54,615 nt of DNA from assembly GCA_018896595.1 (NCBI GenBank), contig JAHIME010000003.1, positions 1-54,615 on the forward strand, given 5' to 3'. The notes beneath the pieces are model-generated. The model was not told where the DNA came from and ran no database searches. It worked only from the letters and a program-made list of their open reading frames with translations. Positions 3,332 to 50,427 of this stretch are shown here, piece by piece. This DNA comes from Patescibacteria group bacterium. Lineage in GTDB: Bacteria > Patescibacteriota > Patescibacteriia > Patescibacteriales > VMTK01. A program made the position numbers and the translations under genes. Position 1 is the first letter of the stretch; each line of letters begins with the position of its first letter.

Positions 3332-3613
3332 CTATTTGATATAAGTGATTCCTCCTTTTAAATTATTGTTTACTATGATTTTTTCTCCTGTTTTTCTGTT
3401 TGTCAGTAAAATTTTTCTTGCCGACAATTTTTTTCGCGACAAATCTCCTTCCCTTATTCTCCTTTTTAAACTTTTTTTGCTTATGGGTTTAAAAAAACCG
3501 GATCGCTCAACGCATCTGCCGATATAATGCCAGCTCTCTTGTCCGCTTGAGCTTAATATTGGCAGCTTTTCCTTTTTTCTCGCATGCTTTTTTCTTTCGT
3601 TCCTGATACCCAA
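3332..3613 (-). CDS. basic 93-codon ORF, in frame with the upstream ORF across one TGA; doubtful as an independent gene
   Basis: The track start is TTG (3611-3613) and the ORF contains no ATG at all. It shares the reading frame of 3620-3904 (3904 minus 3613 is 291, divisible by 3). Confidence 0.3.
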   Translation of the reverse strand: MGIRNERKKHARKKEKLPILSSSGQESWHYIGRCVERSGFFKPISKKSLKRRIREGDLSRKKLSARKILLTNRKTGEKIIVNNNLKGGITYIK

Positions 3614-3619
3614 TTTACA

Positions 3620-3904
3620 TCACCGCCTTTTGTTATTTTTTTTCTCCTGTGGACAATCTATACAAGAAAAACTCCACCACTTTTCTTTTAAAAAATCATC
3701 GGAACATTCTCTGTAATACTTGCATAATGACCACCTTAGTTCAGCAACCAACTTTTGGTATTTTAACTGACAAAGTCTTCCAGGGGATTTTATTTCCGTT
3801 ATTACAGCTGTTATGTTATTATAAAGATTTAATTCTTTTTTAACACCCGTTTTAAATTCGTATTTCAGGTTTAATGTAACTACAATTATTTTTTCGCTAT
3901 TCAT
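3620..3904 (-). CDS. hypothetical Cys-containing small protein
   Basis: 94-aa ORF whose ATG is preceded by a strong SD (AAGGAGGAGGGAGAAG, 3905-3922). Ends in TGA at 3620-3622. Confidence 0.5.
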   Translation of the reverse strand: MNSEKIIVVTLNLKYEFKTGVKKELNLYNNITAVITEIKSPGRLCQLKYQKLVAELRWSLCKYYRECSDDFLKEKWWSFSCIDCPQEKKNNKRR

Positions 3905-3926
3905 CTTCTCCCTCCTCCTTTTCGCG

Positions 3927-4652
3927 TTAGCAATAAATAAAATTATAAAAAGAGCATATTATATCGTTTATTTCTTTAATTAGCTTATCATTGATTTTTA
4001 ATTTTATCAGTTTATTCAAATCGCTTTCAACCGCCAATCTTAACACTTTAATGCAATCGGCGGAAATTGGCAAGACATGCTTGTTTTTATTATTTTTTTG
4101 GCAACTTGCGCAAACCAAACCGCCTTTGGATAAATTAAATTGGTTGCCCGCGGGCAAAATTTTATTTCCGCAAATCACGCAATTGTGCAGCTCGGGCCGA
4201 TAACCCAACTCTGCCAACATATTTAATGTAAAAAAATGATAAAATAACTGATACCTGATAACTGATAACTTATTTTCATTTAATGTTTCTAAAAAATCTT
4301 GCAACAATTCAAATAACTTCTCTCCTTTTTCGCCCGGTTTGACTGATTTATTAAAAATGGCAACGGCTTGAGCGGCAAAAAACAGCTTTTCCAAATCGGT
4401 TTTTATGTTATAGTGGCAATTTTGGCTGATCGCGGCGCCGATATAATCATACTGCCTGCCCCGCGCCACCATTAAATCGGAAAGATTGAACGGCTCAAGG
4501 TGTCCGGCTAATTTTGAAGAAATCTTTTTTGTTCCCCGCGCCACCAAATCAATCTTGCCCCTGTCGCGGCTGTAAACAATAACTCGGCAATCATTTTCCC
4601 TGAACGGCTGGCGGCTTAAAATTATCGCCTTTGTTTGATAAGTAGCTTCCAT
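3927..4652 (-). CDS. recO: DNA repair protein RecO
   Basis: N-terminal OB-fold pattern (AIILSRQPFRENDCRVIVYSRDRGKI) and a C-terminal CxxC...CxxC zinc motif (CVICG...CASC). Confidence 0.88.
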   Translation of the reverse strand: MEATYQTKAIILSRQPFRENDCRVIVYSRDRGKIDLVARGTKKISSKLAGHLEPFNLSDLMVARGRQYDYIGAAISQNCHYNIKTDLEKLFFAAQAVAIFNKSVKPGEKGEKLFELLQDFLETLNENKLSVIRYQLFYHFFTLNMLAELGYRPELHNCVICGNKILPAGNQFNLSKGGLVCASCQKNNKNKHVLPISADCIKVLRLAVESDLNKLIKLKINDKLIKEINDIICSFYNFIYC

Positions 4653-11906: not shown

Positions 11907-12527
11907 CTATTTTTGTTCCCCGATTTTTTGATCCGCCTTTTCATTCTTTTCCACTTTCTTCAATCTCTTCAGCGCTTCAATCGCGCACTTTACATTGTTA
12001 ACCTTATTGTTTGTGCCCAATATCTTGCTGGTAATATTTTTAATTCCGGATAATTCAATAATAATTCTCACGGCTCCGCCCGCGATAATGCCTCTGCCCT
12101 TGCGGGCCGGTTTGAACAAAATTTCCGCCGCGCCGTATTTTTGCCTGATTTCATGCGGGATGGTGTCATTTACGATTGGAACTTCAATAATATTTTTTTT
12201 GGCCCTATTAACGGCTTTGGTGACAGCATTGGTAACATCAGCGCCTTTAGCCAGCCCAATGGCCGCTTTGCCTTTTTTATTGCCGATTGCCACGCAAGCT
12301 CTGAATCTCATTCTTTTTCCGCCTGCCATAACGCGAGTTACTCTCGCGATATCTATGATTCTTTGTTCAAATTCTTCCGGTATTTGTTCGCTTCTATTTC
12401 TAAAGCCGCCTCTTTTACCGCCCCTTGAAGCCCCTTTATTCGCTTCAGCCGGTTTTGATTGCATTTTATTTTGTTCTGTCATATATTTAAACTGTTGAAT
12501 AATTAAATTTACCTCCTCCATTGTCAT
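11907..12527 (-). CDS. rpsE: 30S ribosomal protein S5
   Basis: RVTRVMAGGKRMRFRACVAIGNKKG core. The start is ambiguous: ATGs at 12527, 12521 and 12482, and the longest ORF begins inside the palindromic element. Confidence 0.9.
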   Translation of the reverse strand: MTMEEVNLIIQQFKYMTEQNKMQSKPAEANKGASRGGKRGGFRNRSEQIPEEFEQRIIDIARVTRVMAGGKRMRFRACVAIGNKKGKAAIGLAKGADVTNAVTKAVNRAKKNIIEVPIVNDTIPHEIRQKYGAAEILFKPARKGRGIIAGGAVRIIIELSGIKNITSKILGTNNKVNNVKCAIEALKRLKKVEKNEKADQKIGEQK

Positions 12528-12616
12528 TCCCGCGAAAGCGGGAATCCAGATTTTACTCGCTTAACCCCTGGATTCCCCACCCGCTTTCGCGAGTGCTAAA
12601 GGCCGCGGGAATGACA
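12523..12616. repeat. nested palindromic intergenic element
   Basis: GTCATTCCCGCG (12523-12534) pairs with CGCGGGAATGAC (12605-12616). CGCGAAAGCGGG (12531-12542) pairs with CCCGCTTTCGCG (12580-12591). GGAATCCAG (12541-12549) pairs with CTGGATTCC (12568-12576). Confidence 0.8.
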
Positions 12617-12627
12617 AACTGGCGTAT

Positions 12628-26490: not shown

Positions 26491-26600
26491 ATTCAAATAC
26501 TACAAATTATATTCAAATACTACAAAAATTTATTATACAGAATAATGAATTCTTATCTATTTCATTTGTAGTATTCGCATACATTTGTAGATTCGCATTA
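26491..26600. repeat. inverted-repeat element built from the ~16-nt motif AT(G/T)C(G/A)AATACTACAAA, locus A
   Basis: Two direct copies (26491-26508, 26511-26530) face two inverted copies (26565-26580, 26584-26600). A minus-strand TATAAT (26532-26537) lies between them. Confidence 0.8.
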
Positions 26601-36001: not shown

Positions 36002-36074
36002 TGGGCGATGGTGGATTCGAACCACCGACTTCTATCGTGTGAGGATAGCACTCTAACCGCTGAGTTAATCGCCC
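36002..36074 (-). tRNA. tRNA-Val (anticodon CAC)
   Basis: Manual fold: acceptor GGGCGAT/ATCGCCC, D stem ACTC/GAGT, anticodon stem CTATC/GATAG with loop CTCACAC, T arm GGTGG-TTCGAAT-CCACC, discriminator A. CCA is not encoded. Confidence 0.95.
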
Positions 36075-36492: not shown

Positions 36493-36502
36493 AATGCGTT
36501 TA

Positions 36503-36624
36503 TAATGCGAATACTACAAATAAAACTCAAATACTACAAAAACTACAAATCGAATTAAAGTAAATGTTAATTCGCATTATTCGTTTTGTAGTATTCGCAT
36601 ACTAATTTGTAGTATTCGCATTAT
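36503..36624. repeat. inverted-repeat element of the ...GCGAATACTACAAA family, locus B
   Basis: Direct copies at 36503-36520 and 36526-36540, with a partial copy at 36541-36549. Inverted copies at 36584-36600 and 36605-36624. The last inverted copy supplies the final recJ codons and stop. Confidence 0.8.
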
Positions 36625-38335
36625 GTTTTATGTCAACAACCTTTAACTGCGCCTCTCTTCTTCCATTAAACTCGTTCATTTCCACATAATAAACAATATC
36701 AATTTTATCGCCGATGCGCAAATCCTGCCACGTTTCGGCTTGATTAAAAGCCACCGCCCAAAAGTTTCCCATTCTGAATTTAACATGCCTGCCGTCAATG
36801 CCCATGGTCATTATATCACGGATCGCGACATTGCGGCTCGCGAACCGCGGCCGCTCGTTGTCCTCGCCGAATGGCGCGAATTTCTCCATATCTTTAATCA
36901 GCTCCTCGCTTACTTCTTCTAAATCCAGCTCGGCTTCAACAACCACTCGCGGCCTTAAATCAATGTCTTTTAATATTGTATCCGCGATTCGCTTCATCTT
37001 TCCGACAAAATCCGGCAAATTATCTTTGCTTTTCAGAGTAAAGCCGCAGGCCTGGGCATGGCCGCCGAACCTTAAGAAAAACTCCTTTACCTCTTCCAGC
37101 GCTTTGATAATATTAAACTCTTCTATGCTGCGGCCCGAGCCCTTTATTTCGCCATGGCCTTGTGTTATTACTAAAACCGGCCGATTGTACTGTTCGCATA
37201 ATCTGCCCGCCACCAAGCCGATAACTCCCTCGGGCCATGAATTTGCCCCGCTAATTATAGCCGGATCGGTTAAAATTAAAATTTTATCATCCCCCAACTC
37301 TTTTTCAACAACCTGCCTGCAATACTCCGCTATTTCATTGGTTATTTTTTGCCGTTCAATATTTTTGTCATTCAAACGGGCGGCAATGGCTTGCGCTTCT
37401 TGTTTATTTTTAGTTGTAAGCAGTTCAAAGGCGGTATTGGCGTGTTCAAGCCGGCCGGCCGCGTTAAGCCGCGGCGCAATCTGCCAGCCGATATTCCAGG
37501 CGTCAATCCGGCCGTTAATCTGCGCTTGCTTTATGAGCTCGTCCAGCCCAACACGGTTTTGCTTATTGATTATTTTAAGCCCTTCTTTGATTATTATTCT
37601 GTTCTCTCCCAAAACGGTTACGCAATCCGCCACCGTGCCGATAGCGGCCAAATCCAAAATATTTTCTTCCAATTTTCGCTTCACGCTTTCTTCTAATTTT
37701 GCCTCGCCGATAAGCGCCTTTGCCAATTTAAAAGCCACTCCCACTCCGGCCAAATATTTAAAAGGATATTTTTCGCCCTTTGCCATCGGATTGATAATCA
37801 AGCAGTCGGGCAATTCGCTTTCATCTTCCGACGGCTGGTGGTGGTCGGTTATAATAACATCAATTCCTAAACTCTTGGCGTATTCAACTTCGTCTTTACC
37901 GCGGATGCCGTTGTCAACGGTTATGATAAGTTTCGCGCCGGCTTGCGCCAACAAATCAATCGCTTGATTGTTCAGCCCGTAACCCTCGCTCGCCCTGTCC
38001 GGAATATAAACATCAACATCGGCTTTTAATGTTGATAATGTTTCAGCCAATATCGCCGAAGCCGTAACCCCGTCGGCGTCAAAGTCGCCGTAGACCACGA
38101 TGAAATGAGCTTTTTTAATATGCTCTATAATCAGCTCAACAGCCGCCCGCATATTTTGAAAAAGAAAAGGATCGTAACCGTTCTCGGCGCAGTCCGGATT
38201 TAAAAACGCTTCAATTTCTTCTTTCTCTTTTAAGCCGCGATTATACAGCAATTGCAAAACCACCCGGCTGTACTCGGGGAATTTTTTAATAAATTCTCTG
38301 TCAATTTGAGGCAATATCAGCCAGTTTTTGTTCAT
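36602..38335 (-). CDS. recJ: single-stranded-DNA-specific exonuclease RecJ
   Basis: DHH motifs: GDFDADGVT, ITVDNG, IITDHH. DHHA1 motif GGHAQACG. Confidence 0.92.
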   Translation of the reverse strand: MNKNWLILPQIDREFIKKFPEYSRVVLQLLYNRGLKEKEEIEAFLNPDCAENGYDPFLFQNMRAAVELIIEHIKKAHFIVVYGDFDADGVTASAILAETLSTLKADVDVYIPDRASEGYGLNNQAIDLLAQAGAKLIITVDNGIRGKDEVEYAKSLGIDVIITDHHQPSEDESELPDCLIINPMAKGEKYPFKYLAGVGVAFKLAKALIGEAKLEESVKRKLEENILDLAAIGTVADCVTVLGENRIIIKEGLKIINKQNRVGLDELIKQAQINGRIDAWNIGWQIAPRLNAAGRLEHANTAFELLTTKNKQEAQAIAARLNDKNIERQKITNEIAEYCRQVVEKELGDDKILILTDPAIISGANSWPEGVIGLVAGRLCEQYNRPVLVITQGHGEIKGSGRSIEEFNIIKALEEVKEFFLRFGGHAQACGFTLKSKDNLPDFVGKMKRIADTILKDIDLRPRVVVEAELDLEEVSEELIKDMEKFAPFGEDNERPRFASRNVAIRDIMTMGIDGRHVKFRMGNFWAVAFNQAETWQDLRIGDKIDIVYYVEMNEFNGRREAQLKVVDIKHNANTTN

Positions 38336-38445: not shown

Positions 38446-40350
38446 TTATCTCTTTAATATCTTAACGAACACATCGCTCGGAATTTCCACGCTTCCTTTC
38501 CCGGCCGCCATCATTTTCTTCTTGCCCTTTTTCTGCTTGTCCAAGAGCTTGCGCTTGCGCGAAACATCGCCGCCGTAAAGCTTGGCCGTCACATCCTTGC
38601 TCATAGCCGAAAGCCGTTCCGCGGCAATAATCTTGCCGCCGATAGCCGCCTGCAATTTAACAACGAACATCTGCTTGGACAAAGATTCTTTTAAAACGTT
38701 AACCACTTCTTTGCCGCGATTAAAGGCCTCGTCTTCATAAACAATCATTGTTAGCGCCTCAACCGGCTCCTCGGCGACTAAAATATCCATTTTTACCACC
38801 TTTGCTTCGCGGTAATCCGTAAATTCGTAATTAATGGAAGCGTAGCCGGAACTCGCGCTTTTTATTTTATCGTAAAAATCAGTCAATATCGCCGACATGG
38901 GCATTTCGTAATGCAGAACCGCGCGCGTTTCATTTAAATATTCGGTATTCTTATATACCCCTCTTTTTTCCTGAACTAAATTCATTATGGCGCCGATATA
39001 TTCTTTCGGCGTAATTATATCCAAAGTTACCCATGGCTCTTCTATTTTTTCTATTATTTCTCTTGAAGGAAATTTCTGCGGACTGCGCGCGATTAATTCC
39101 TCTTCATTTTTCTTGTAAATTTTATAAGCAACACTGGGAACGGTGACGATTAAGTTTAAATTATATTCCCTTTTCAATCTTTCTTGAAATATATCCAAGT
39201 GAAGCAGGCCCAAAAAGCCGCACCTGAAACCAAAACCCAGGGCTTCCGAATGCTCCGGCTCATAAATTAAAGCGGCGTCGTTTAATTTTAATTTTTCCAT
39301 TGATTCGCGCAATTCCTGGAATTCATTGCCTTCGCGCGGAAAGATGCCGGCGAAAACCATAGGCTTTACTTCTTTGTACCCTTGCAGCGGCTCTACAAGC
39401 GTACGCGCCGCTATCGCGCCACGTCCGCTAATCACCGTATCCCCGACCCGGCATTCGCTCACATCCTTAAAGCCGGTAACAATATAGCCGATTTCTCCGG
39501 TTTGCAATTTTCCGGTTGAAAAATAATCCGGCTTAAAAATGCCGATATCCAAAGCCTCGCTTTTCGCGCGCGTGGACATTAAAATTATTTTATCGCCTTT
39601 TTTTACTTCTCCGTCAACAACGCGGACATAAGCGACAACGCCTCGGTATTCGTCGTAATTGGAATCAAATATCAAAGCGCGCAACAAAGTGCCGGCTCCA
39701 TAGTCTACGGCCGCAGCCGGAGCTGTGGAGCCTTGTTGCGAGCCATTATCGCCAGTTTGCATTTGGGCTCCACAGCCCTTCGGGACTATGGAGCCGGCAA
39801 ATTGGGGTGAGGTCGCCGGCACCGGCACACGCTCAATAACCGCCTTTAATATTTCTTCAACGCCCTGCCCTGTTTTTCCTGAAGCATGGATTATTTCCTC
39901 CCGGCCGCAGCCCAATAATTTAATAATTTCATTTTCGGTTTTTTCAATTTGCGCCGCCGGCAAGTCAATCTTATTCACCACCGGAATAACGGTTAAATCC
40001 TGCTCAACAGCCAAATATAAATTTGCCAAAGTCTGCGCCTGTATCCCCTGGGTCGCGTCCACTAATAAAACAGCGCCCTCTACGGCAGCCAAAGAGCGCG
40101 ACACCTCGTAAGTAAAATCAACATGGCCGGGAGTATCTATTAAATTCAAAATATAGCCGTTGTAATCCATTGTTACGGGCTGCAATTTAATCGTTATCCC
40201 GCGCTCTCTTTCCAAATCCATTCTGTCCAAAACCTGCTCTTTCATTTTTCTTTTTTCAATCGTGCCGGTAATCTCAAGCATCCTGTCCGCCAAAGTTGAT
40301 TTGCCGTGGTCAATATGCGCGATTATGCAAAAATTTCTGATGTTATTCAT
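38446..40350 (-). CDS. lepA: translation elongation factor 4 (LepA) with a 36-aa insertion
   Basis: [17 protein letters not shown] and NKID motifs, plus the LepA C-terminal domain. Confidence 0.95.
   Translation of the reverse strand: MNNIRNFCIIAHIDHGKSTLADRMLEITGTIEKRKMKEQVLDRMDLERERGITIKLQPVTMDYNGYILNLIDTPGHVDFTYEVSRSLAAVEGAVLLVDATQGIQAQTLANLYLAVEQDLTVIPVVNKIDLPAAQIEKTENEIIKLLGCGREEIIHASGKTGQGVEEILKAVIERVPVPATSPQFAGSIVPKGCGAQMQTGDNGSQQGSTAPAAAVDYGAGTLLRALIFDSNYDEYRGVVAYVRVVDGEVKKGDKIILMSTRAKSEALDIGIFKPDYFSTGKLQTGEIGYIVTGFKDVSECRVGDTVISGRGAIAARTLVEPLQGYKEVKPMVFAGIFPREGNEFQELRESMEKLKLNDAALIYEPEHSEALGFGFRCGFLGLLHLDIFQERLKREYNLNLIVTVPSVAYKIYKKNEEELIARSPQKFPSREIIEKIEEPWVTLDIITPKEYIGAIMNLVQEKRGVYKNTEYLNETRAVLHYEMPMSAILTDFYDKIKSASSGYASINYEFTDYREAKVVKMDILVAEEPVEALTMIVYEDEAFNRGKEVVNVLKESLSKQMFVVKLQAAIGGKIIAAERLSAMSKDVTAKLYGGDVSRKRKLLDKQKKGKKKMMAAGKGSVEIPSDVFVKILKR
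39691..39798. repeat. 108-nt nested palindromic element inserted in frame in lepA
   Basis: Perfect 15-bp arms GCCGGCTCCATAGTC (39691-39705) / GACTATGGAGCCGGC (39784-39798). Inner perfect 11-bp arms 39722-39732 / 39766-39776. Confidence 0.9.
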
Positions 40351-43657: not shown

Positions 43658-43700
43658 AAAAAATCAAAAATATAGGTAATAATTATTTTGTGAAAAATTT

Positions 43701-45317
43701 CTAAAATTTTTCACTCTTTAACTTTGCATTTTGAATTTTTAACTTTGAATTAATAATGCTCTCTCCCGTCATCTCCTTCGGCTTCTCGCGCCCGATTAAT
43801 TCAAGCATGGTCGGGGCTATATCGGCTAAAACGGCTGAATCGCGCAATTTTATGCTATGTTTTAATTTTTGATTAATAAAAATAAACGGCACCGGGTTGC
43901 TTGAATGTTCCGAATCAATTTCACCTGTTTCCAAATTAATCATTTCTTCTATATTGCCGTGGTCAGCGGTTATTAAAGCCGTCCCGCCGGCTTTTAAGCA
44001 GGCCTTAACGATCTGATTCGTATAACCATCAACCTCTTCGCAGCATTTAATTCCCGCCGCGAGATTGCCTGTGTGGCCTATCATATCCGGCGCGGCAATA
44101 TTCAAAACAATAAAATCATATCTTTTATTGTTTAAGCTGTCAATAACGAACTTGGTTAATCCCGCTGTGCTCATAGCCGGTGTTTCATCGTATGATTTTA
44201 CATCAGGGGAAGGAATCATACGCTGGTTTTCGCCGTTGACTGTGCCGGCATAGCCGCCGTTAAAAAAATAAGTTACATGCGCGTACTTTTCCGTTTCAGC
44301 GATGTATAGTTGCCGCAAATCCGCTAATTGCATCGGCAAAGTTCCTTTTAAATCAACGCTTGGGAAGGCCGTGAGAATATCGCCCAAATCGGGGCCGAAA
44401 TCAGTCATAACGATAAATTTTATATTTTTCAATACTTTTTTCCTTTTAAACGAACCTGGATTAAGCTTATTAAAATCTTCCTGCACGAAAACTTTTGTAA
44501 GCTGCCTGGCCCTGTCTGAACGCAAATTAAAAAAAATAACGCTGTCGTTGTTGCTTATTCCGGGTGTCGGTTTGCCTTTCCGGGTAATTACATAGGGCTC
44601 AATAAATTCGTCGTTTTCTCCCCTATTGTAAGCTTCCGTTACGGCGGCATAAGGGTTTTCCGCCTTGCGGCCCTCTCCTAAAACCAACGTATTATAAGCT
44701 TTTTCGCTGCGCTCCCACTTTTTCTTCCTGTCCATGGCGTAAAACCTCCCAATGATTGAAGCGATGGAGCCGACGCCTTTCATGCTGAATTCAATCTTTT
44801 TAATCATTTTTAAAGCCGCGTATTTAGGCGAATCGCGGCCATCGGTAAATAGATGGAGATAAACATTTTTAATGTTAAAACCTTTAACTAATGTTAACAA
44901 GGCCAAAATGTGGTCGGGATCGCTATGGGCGCTCATGCCGTCGGACAGCATGCCTATTAAATGCAAGTTTGATTTATTCTTTCCAACATGCCTTATGGCT
45001 TCTACAAAAGCGGGATTTTTAAAAAAAGTGCCTTCGTTAATGCTTCTGCTTATTTTTACCGCGTCTTGCTCCACTACTCGGCCGGCGCCGATATTCATAT
45101 GTCCCGCTTCGCTATTGCCGTCTTGCTTGGGGGGCAAACCAACGGATCTGCCGAACGCGCATAATTCGGTATTAGGGTATTCTTTAATTAATTTATCAAT
45201 ATTCGGCGTTTTTGCCAAAGTAATCGCGTTGCCTTTACTGGATTTGGCAATACCCCAGCCGTCCAAAATAATCAATATTATTGGCAGAATATTTTTTTTA
45301 TCAAAATTTTTTTTCAT
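43701..45317 (-). CDS. gpmI: 2,3-bisphosphoglycerate-independent phosphoglycerate mutase (copy 2, divergent paralog)
   Basis: ILDGWG, GNSEAGH, DMIGHTG and ADHGN motifs. Its start overlaps the eno stop (ATGA at 45314-45317). Confidence 0.9.
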   Translation of the reverse strand: MKKNFDKKNILPIILIILDGWGIAKSSKGNAITLAKTPNIDKLIKEYPNTELCAFGRSVGLPPKQDGNSEAGHMNIGAGRVVEQDAVKISRSINEGTFFKNPAFVEAIRHVGKNKSNLHLIGMLSDGMSAHSDPDHILALLTLVKGFNIKNVYLHLFTDGRDSPKYAALKMIKKIEFSMKGVGSIASIIGRFYAMDRKKKWERSEKAYNTLVLGEGRKAENPYAAVTEAYNRGENDEFIEPYVITRKGKPTPGISNNDSVIFFNLRSDRARQLTKVFVQEDFNKLNPGSFKRKKVLKNIKFIVMTDFGPDLGDILTAFPSVDLKGTLPMQLADLRQLYIAETEKYAHVTYFFNGGYAGTVNGENQRMIPSPDVKSYDETPAMSTAGLTKFVIDSLNNKRYDFIVLNIAAPDMIGHTGNLAAGIKCCEEVDGYTNQIVKACLKAGGTALITADHGNIEEMINLETGEIDSEHSSNPVPFIFINQKLKHSIKLRDSAVLADIAPTMLELIGREKPKEMTGESIINSKLKIQNAKLKSEKF

Positions 45318-50362: not shown

Positions 50363-50407
50363 AAAAAATAAAAAAGCCCCTCCTCTCGCGAGAGGAGGGG
50401 CTTTTTT
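50363..50407. terminator. strong intrinsic terminator (bidirectional)
   Basis: GCCCCTCCTCTCGCGAGAGGAGGGGC (50376-50401) flanked by an A-run and a T-run, immediately after the HtrA-like gene. Confidence 0.85.
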
Positions 50408-50427
50408 ATTTTTTAATTTAATATTTT

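Follow-up and report, generated by a model that had tools for sequence, protein, structure and literature searches.

The gene for LepA (elongation factor 4) of a Patescibacteria group bacterium carries, without loss of frame, a 108-nt palindromic segment. With a probability of about 80% this segment is one copy of a REPIN, a non-autonomous element of two inverted repetitive extragenic palindromic (REP) units, from a Patescibacteria-wide family that has a cognate REP-associated tyrosine transposase (RAYT) of the HUH/Y1 kind, and it is translated as a loop of the protein. The DNA analyzed, here termed the window, is the stretch of 54,615 nt at positions 1 to 54,615 of contig JAHIME010000003.1 (assembly GCA_018896595.1). 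On this reading the odd 36-residue extension of a highly conserved translation factor is explained as selfish DNA and not as protein innovation, which matters for annotation and for the structural and phylogenetic use of Patescibacteria proteins. REPIN/RAYT systems would also be extended to a phylum with ultra-small, gene-dense genomes, with about a third of the copies seen being intragenic.

The palindromic insert of lepA

The original prediction, made from the sequence alone, was of two nested pairs of perfect inverted repeats within a segment of exactly 36 in-frame codons, located where the G domain of LepA meets domain II and richer in GC than the gene around it. All of these features are present. 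The outer repeats (39691-39705/39784-39798) are of 15 bp and can be lengthened to 21 nt at 90%, the inner ones (39722-39732/39766-39776) are of 11 bp, and the minus-strand open reading frame (ORF) gives the quoted peptide in the context ...SPQF-AGSIVPKGCGAQMQTGDNGSQQGSTAPAAAVDYGAG-TLLRALIFDS. With a GC content of 0.63, the insert stands above both the remainder of lepA (0.44) and the window (0.41). Folded as RNA in the lepA sense, the insert reaches -70.4 kcal/mol (z = -9.0; 0 of 200 shuffles as stable), and as single-stranded DNA it reaches -38 to -39 kcal/mol on both strands (z = -7.4/-7.5), while equal-sized segments of lepA folded as a control have a mean z of 0.0 and a minimum of -1.4. 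For this copy, a covariance model of the repeat family described below (R1) gives 90.9 bits when the sense strand is read and 80.5 when the antisense strand is. A boundary conserved throughout that family, G at -3 and C at +3 of the core, sets the ends of the lepA element exactly at 39691 and 39798.

The lepA product is identical to the NCBI entry 'translation elongation factor 4 [Patescibacteria group bacterium]' (P0001), and the solved LepA structure 2ywe matches it with an E-value of 1e-200. In the phmmer alignment that confirms the position of the insert, residues 2-183 of the query correspond to residues 4-190 of the 2ywe chain and residues 223-633 to 193-598, so that residues 184-222 stand in place of two residues at the junction of the G domain and domain II. 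When the 36 codons are left out, the linker has 8 residues (ATSPQFTL), which equals the shortest linkers among close relatives, and that of 2ywe is one residue shorter. In an AlphaFold2 model built with 58 homologues, residues 182-219 have a predicted local distance difference test (pLDDT) score of less than 50 and are without secondary structure, and the flanks of this stretch, a helix at 164-174 and a strand at 224-233, are modelled with confidence. The insert is accordingly predicted to occupy a disordered, stop-free inter-domain loop.

The insert recurs without change in two separately deposited metagenome-assembled genomes (MAGs), GCA_018895445.1 and GCA_018897445.1, whose DNA matches the window at 99.3-99.5% identity. 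Their lepA genes differ from that of the window by 9 and 14 single-nucleotide polymorphisms (SNPs), none of them inside the insert, and as the LepA proteins of all three are identical, every one of these SNPs is synonymous. This pattern indicates strong purifying selection on this LepA, insert included. Identity of the insert in three strain-level assemblies with SNPs elsewhere in lepA also means that it is not a one-off assembly artefact, a concern raised with the original prediction. The companion concern, that all related LepA proteins have a homologous segment and that the extension is an ancient protein feature, is answered by its absence from all of 119 other LepA relatives (none above 90% identity, most of them annotated as Falkowbacteria or Patescibacteria). 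Such a distribution points to a recent, lineage-specific gain. A relative whose LepA is 90% identical (P0002, locus L001) was considered as an empty site and rejected, as the same linker there holds a different GC-rich nested hairpin.

The repeat family and its transposase

Counting copies in other genomes bears out that the palindrome is a dispersed repeat. An arm pattern, GGCTCCATAGT-N60-90-ACTATGGAGCC, scanned against one genome per GTDB species, finds 40 loci where, by the analysis's own estimate, about 1-2 would be expected by chance. A common internal architecture is present in 38 of them; the other two (L008 and L029, from Anaerobutyricum and Roseovarius) are without the internal motifs and resemble the expected chance matches. 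Almost all of the 38 true loci come from MAGs of Patescibacteria (Falkow-, Kuenen-, Doudna- and Parcubacteria, and unclassified members), and the pattern has no match in the viral contig collection. Run over the 40 genome loci, the covariance model scores about 46 copies at 49 bits or more, spread over 20 assemblies; some of these copies lack exact arms, and at some MAG138 loci the density is up to 3-5 copies per 6-8 kb. Genomes with several copies include MAG138 (at least 9 loci), DP16D_bin.9 (5) and C19_concoct.bin.47 (4). The core of family copies is of 82-112 nt. Two typical copies (L038 and L040, CAYHWE01/CAYHSR01) are at loci with a GC content of 38-44% in sequences titled 'uncultured Gammaproteobacteria'; either these are a matter of mis-binning or mislabelling, or the family reaches beyond Patescibacteria.

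All true copies open with a terminal stem of 3-4 bp, followed by GGCTCCATAG(T), a small tip hairpin that is usually CCCGNNAGGG, and CTGTGGAGCC. The spacer usually opens with nnnATGCAAAC; beyond it come GGCTCCACAG, another tip hairpin that varies more than the first, (A)CTATGGAGCC and, last, the other side of the terminal stem. The consensus REP unit is GGCTCCAYAG, a variable tip hairpin, and CTRTGGAGCC. Unit 1 is the best-conserved half of the family alignment and its tip helix has compensatory changes; in the tip of unit 2 (helix 5) the pairs across the family are CG15/GC10/UA5, and the spacer carries a semi-conserved UGC/GCA extension of the inner stem. For the five-helix structure in an alignment of 32 copies, 95.6% of cells are paired as against 32-41% when the partners are slid, and the covariation score is 0.181 as against 0.082 with shuffling, with 0 of 500 shuffles reaching the observed value. 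The terminal extension (CG11/UA11/AU2) shows compensatory changes, as do both tip hairpins. The coordinates of these parts in the lepA copy are given in the table.

Coordinates of the lepA gene, its REPIN copy and the adjoining sequence in the window
Feature	Coordinates	Strand	Basis or remarks
lepA (elongation factor 4), insertion host	38446..40350	minus	ORF, 634 aa
Whole REPIN copy, 108 nt = 36 codons	39691..39798	minus ('forward' on the lepA sense strand)	inverted repeats, covariance model R1, family-wide ends
REP unit 1	39766..39795	minus	arm 1 GGCTCCATAG 39795-39786; tip hairpin A CCCGAAGGG 39784-39776; arm 2 CTGTGGAGCC 39775-39766
Spacer between the REP units (CAAATGCAAAC...GCAACAA)	39733..39765	minus	alignment A1, helix 4
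REP unit 2, inverse of unit 1	39694..39732	minus	arm 3 GGCTCCACAG 39732-39723; arm 4 CTATGGAGCC 39703-39694
Variable tip region B of REP unit 2, small hairpin GGCUGCGGCC	39722-39705	minus	helix 5 covariation
ACCTCACCCCAA (codons TSPQ), just upstream of TTT and the REPIN	39802..39813	minus	identical 12 nt in P0009/L128 and P0030/L129

Arms 1 and 2 with their tip make one imperfect hairpin (unit 1), and arms 3 and 4 make another (unit 2). Inversion of unit 2 with respect to unit 1 (ATAG..CTGT / ACAG..CTAT) is seen in 35 of the 46 copies. Within each REP unit one internal mismatch, T·G or C·A, is conserved, and the pairing between units is perfect. A GGTTCC/GGAACC variant occurs in all four arms of 3 copies and in both arms of a single unit in 4, but never across units. 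Evolutionary traces are thus left by the single REP hairpin as well as by the hairpin of the doublet. Direct repeats of at least 5 nt flank 5.6% of copies as against 4.1% in the null, which means no target-site duplication beyond the null level; a 6/7 direct match, CA(A/C)TTTG, that the lepA junctions share by eye is treated as chance. The HUH single-strand mechanism of IS200/IS605 and of TnpA-REP inserts without target-site duplication, and the absence of duplications here agrees with such a mechanism for the RAYT family.

Other kinds of element with related layouts were considered and rejected. Many copies have GTT...AAC at their ends, as might an integron attC site, but the flanks do not fit GTTRRRY/RYYYAAC, many have GCT/AGC instead, and the copies are dispersed and not in cassette arrays. 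A CRISPR-like repeat-spacer-repeat is rejected because there are only two units, which are dispersed, and the flanks pair. The topology is similar to that of a tRNA-like cloverleaf, but the stems are of 10-15 bp and there is no match to a tRNA model.

The partner gene is well seen at locus L021, where an ORF (3412-3957) for a protein of 181 aa is bracketed by two inverted copies of the element, 21 nt and 0 nt from its ends. This protein scores 99.9 bits on NCBIfam model NF047646, 'REP-associated tyrosine transposase' (REP_Tyr_transpos, cutoff 80), and 28 bits on the IS200 model, below the cutoff of 55. It matches Pfam Y1_Tnp, with the HUH motif NHLHLI and the Tyr motif YIYDNPVKK, and the sole PDB relative of the RAYT profile is E. 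coli TnpA-REP, 4er8. A RAYT gene or a remnant of one adjoins copies at four loci that had been selected by the element, which are L021, L026, L009 and L031. At L026 the gene is full-length and bracketed by inverted copies as at L021, and at L031 a RAYT fragment lies beside an element copy. At L009 (1366-1820) the N-terminal ~55 codons of RAYT have been replaced by a REPIN of its own family, and the ORF reads through into the HUH motif region.

The association was tested independently on 80 metagenome loci that were fetched by RAYT homology alone and then searched with the element model. In 25 of these loci RAYT identity is 65% or more, and 11 of the 25 have an element scoring 35 bits or more within 120 nt of the ORF, several of them on both sides; these 11 loci represent 10 distinct sequences (L059 and L060 score identically). 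Among the 55 loci with a RAYT below 65% identity, none has an adjacent element of such a score. As judged from these loci, the element family is tied to a RAYT clade. No DDE transposase turned up among the ORFs examined next to copies, where RAYT was the only transposase found.

About 12 of the 40 copies (~30%) are inside long ORFs and the rest are intergenic. The other intragenic hosts, several of them housekeeping genes in which the copies are in frame, encode PheT, KsgA/RsmA, a MiaB-like radical-SAM enzyme, UppP/BacA and two Wzy-type ligases. Against solved homologues, residues 588-644 of the PheT query are in place of chain residues 575-609, and residues 213-256 of the KsgA query are in place of 212-216, between two domains; both copies take the place of a few residues, at a variable region or domain junction. 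The MiaB-like copy is, going by coordinates only, between the UPF0004 and Radical_SAM Pfam domains. About 7 intragenic copies are in the sense orientation and 5 in the antisense, a weak call with a quasi-symmetric element, and they are always open in the host frame. Just two reading frames are used, GSIV... and W/R/GLHS..., with the third unused because the TAG of the ATAG tag lies there. The PheT and KsgA ORFs continue although the canonical length of the element is no multiple of three, which makes clean splicing-out impossible. Most simply, then, the intragenic copies would be translated. A 40-aa peptide search for translated copies returned no candidate sharing three words, so the breadth of in-frame copies rests on DNA loci. 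The family amounts to a natural experiment on the protein positions that tolerate insertions of ~30 residues; its alignment and covariance model are usable for a census of the element, and the RAYT and REP pair is small enough for direct biochemistry.

Several points weigh against the REPIN/RAYT interpretation and have to be set beside this evidence. Within the 54.6-kb window the covariance model R1 matches the lepA copy alone and neither arm recurs, nor was a solo REP unit or a RAYT gene found there. With one copy in 54.6 kb, activity of the element in that lineage is unproven, and the lepA copy could have come with recombined DNA. About half of the loci with a RAYT at least 65% identical have no model match, their flanks being short or their repeats diverged. 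The conserved tag is A(T/C)AG and not the classical 5' GTAG of RAYT-associated REPs. The seed alignment A1 was picked by exact outer arms, which makes the invariance of the 11 outer pairs circular; the arms are nearly invariant in 18 copies found without the arm requirement, and this cures the circularity only in part. Orientation calls are weak, with the two strands of the quasi-symmetric element differing by about 10 bits. It is frame and stop-codon logic that favors translation of the lepA insert over its removal. To our knowledge, RAYT-driven transposition of a REPIN has not been demonstrated in vivo in any system.

Origin of the insert and comparison with known systems

In the mechanism favored here, a RAYT that works in trans and on hairpins of single-stranded DNA would have inserted the element into the linker between the G domain and domain II of LepA, possibly into an older hairpin insert that was already in the linker. 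The copy would have survived because its length is a multiple of three, the arms are read in a frame without the TAG stop, and the linker is tolerant of extra residues. The element would simply be translated as a passive 36-residue loop, and a benefit to LepA need not be assumed. A broader proposal, to be regarded as speculative and rather doubtful as a whole, is that Patescibacteria have a REPIN/RAYT system of their own with variable-tip units that fold as a four-way junction, that such hairpin elements repeatedly supply much of the new linker and loop sequence of essential proteins in these very compact genomes, and that the LepA linker is a 'nest' where single-stranded DNA hairpins attract HUH-type insertion, with successive unrelated elements entering or replacing one another.

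Retention of the lepA element for a benefit of its RNA or DNA structure, whether slowing of ribosomes for co-translational folding or regulation of expression, would be a case of exaptation. The extreme stability of the sense-strand RNA (-70.4 kcal/mol, z = -9) is what such a function might call for. The LepA and KsgA copies are at domain junctions and the MiaB-like copy is between two Pfam domains, while unrelated hairpin-forming inserts fill the same LepA linker in other lineages; linkers, however, are also where neutral insertions would survive selection. Most LepAs of the group are without any insert, copies of the element are mostly intergenic, and both orientations occur inside genes. 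Exaptation is not required, it is not favored by the mixed orientations or by the insert-free LepAs, and on balance it is improbable. Removal of the segment after transcription, as a small intron or self-cleaving RNA, or its being a known structured RNA gene within lepA, would account for the compact multi-helix fold with its covariation, and Patescibacteria are generally known for insertions in rRNA genes. However, both strands fold and score alike, most copies are intergenic, the intragenic ones are open in frame, and excision from PheT or KsgA would break the frame. In Rfam 15 the only match in the window at the gathering threshold is a tRNA elsewhere, and even at E <= 10 nothing relevant matches in 39600-39900, so that known ribozymes, introns and tRNA-like RNAs are ruled out. 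The whole makes this a very unlikely explanation.

Inverted termini of 14-15 bp and a typical size (a core of 82-112 nt) are in keeping with an ordinary MITE (miniature inverted-repeat transposable element), a deletion derivative of a DDE-type insertion sequence, and the neighboring RAYTs would then be coincidental. Coincidence is hard to maintain with RAYT beside copies at the four element-selected loci and at 11 of 25 RAYT-selected ones as against 0 of 55 distant ones. The interior of the element is two inverted REP hairpins and not random sequence between a pair of terminal inverted repeats, target-site duplications were not found, and the ORFs examined next to copies include no DDE transposase, so the MITE interpretation has little to commend it. 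Hardest to credit, and contradicted by the results, is that the palindrome arose locally, by template switching or fold-back replication, or is an ancient LepA feature or an assembly artefact. The single copy in the window would be in keeping with any of these, but dozens of homologous copies are present in other genomes, 119 related LepAs are without the segment, and three assemblies with SNPs elsewhere in lepA have it unchanged.

For the REPIN interpretation, the closest precedents are the REPIN/RAYT systems of Pseudomonas fluorescens SBW25 and E. coli (Bertels & Rainey 2011, PMC3337134, PMC3116915), where a REPIN is conceived as a pair of inverted REPs flanking a spacer (Bertels & Rainey, PMC3337134). 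Common to them and the Patescibacteria family are two imperfectly palindromic REP units inverted around a spacer with the possibility of a long hairpin, dispersed elements that are multi-copy in some (related) genomes, a short (~180 aa) HUH/Y1 transposase gene flanked by repeats, specific pairing of RAYT clade and repeat, and target duplications that are not found. The Patescibacteria family differs in its host, in the tag beside the hairpin being AYAG and not GTAG, in each REP unit having its own variable tip hairpin so that the doublet can fold as a four-way junction, and in having ~30% of its copies in genes while classical REPs are mostly extragenic. The GTAG tag is not universal among REPs, as CGTC types exist (PMC3733652). 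RPE-4 and RPE-6 of Rickettsia conorii are CGTC-type REPs, and REP dimers inside ORFs of known proteins encode 20-30 residues (Di Nocera et al. 2013, PMC3733652). The lepA family resembles these intragenic GTAG/CGTC REPs (PMC3733652; Opitutus terrae, Rickettsia conorii and others) in that dimers lie within unrelated proteins and are read as tolerated insertions; it has another sequence and tag, the lepA insert encodes 36 residues, and for the Patescibacteria family a RAYT partner can be demonstrated.

Rickettsia palindromic elements (RPEs), to whose behavior the lepA insert had been likened from the start, are likewise palindromic repeats of ~100 nt that are inserted in frame in genes that stay functional, with the encoded peptides at tolerant protein positions and with a small host genome. 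The likeness seen is one of behavior, and with a host in the phylum Patescibacteria the insert is an analogue of RPEs at most. We know of no transposase partner of RPEs. In-frame palindromic insertion of the RPE type is upheld and at the same time sharpened to a RAYT-associated REPIN, with REPIN/RAYT, and not RPE as such, being the closest system. IS200/IS605 elements and their hairpin-ended miniature derivatives share a Y1 HUH transposase related to RAYT (Pfam Y1_Tnp), imperfect hairpins with a conserved mismatch as recognition elements and the lack of target-site duplication. In contrast to them, the Patescibacteria protein passes the RAYT model and fails the IS200 model, and the repeats far outnumber the gene. 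The literature searched contains no paper linking RAYT or REPIN to Patescibacteria, so the element family appears undescribed so far. The REPIN/RAYT kind and the intragenic in-frame behavior are already known, and the lepA palindrome is a new example of a known phenomenon and no new kind of element.

The LepA linker and other repeats in the window

Across Patescibacteria the linker between the G domain and domain II of LepA is hypervariable, ranging from 8 to ~50 residues. The linker inserts examined (L001/P0002, L124/P0017, L126/P0116, L127/P0106, L128/P0009 and L129/P0030) have a GC content of 0.52-0.69, as against 0.39-0.45 for their genes, and form unrelated hairpins. One hairpin type is GCCCGCC..GCCCCG..CGGGGC..GGCGGGC, and P0017 has hairpins nested inside another. 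In the lepA genes of P0009/L128 and P0030/L129, what comes after ACCTCACCCCAA is another hairpin, CCCTCTCC-TTTAAAA-GGAGAGGG or a variant of it. The copy of ACCTCACCCCAA in the window is probably, to judge from this match, a remnant of an older, unrelated hairpin insert of the linker; as a conjecture, the REPIN may have landed in, or replaced, that older insert.

Several repeats of other kinds are present elsewhere in the window. Between rpsE and rplR, at 12521-12617, perfect 14-nt inverted arms (TTGTCATTCCCGCG/CGCGGGAATGACAA) 69 nt apart enclose the hairpin CCCGCGAAAGCGGG, and this looks like a different palindromic element family in a ribosomal protein operon. AT-rich repeats on AATACTACAAA / TTTGTAGTATTCGCAT, both inverted and direct, are at 36500-36628 and 26491-26586. 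One of these sites is at the 3' end of recJ, where the right-hand arms overlap the last codons (the ORF ends at 36602), ~430 nt from a tRNA gene at 36002-36074. Between two iPGM paralogues, at 43665-43749, the window has about 85 nt of AT-rich sequence where a 99.5%-identical strain has about 17 nt (L002:6669-6685); this strain indel was considered as element-related and rejected, being AT-rich intergenic sequence unrelated to the REPIN. A perfect palindrome of 26+26 nt without spacer, AAAAAATAAAAAAGCCCCTCCTCTCG/CGAGAGGAGGGGCTTTTTTATTTTTT, at 50363-50414 has the look of a bidirectional intrinsic terminator.

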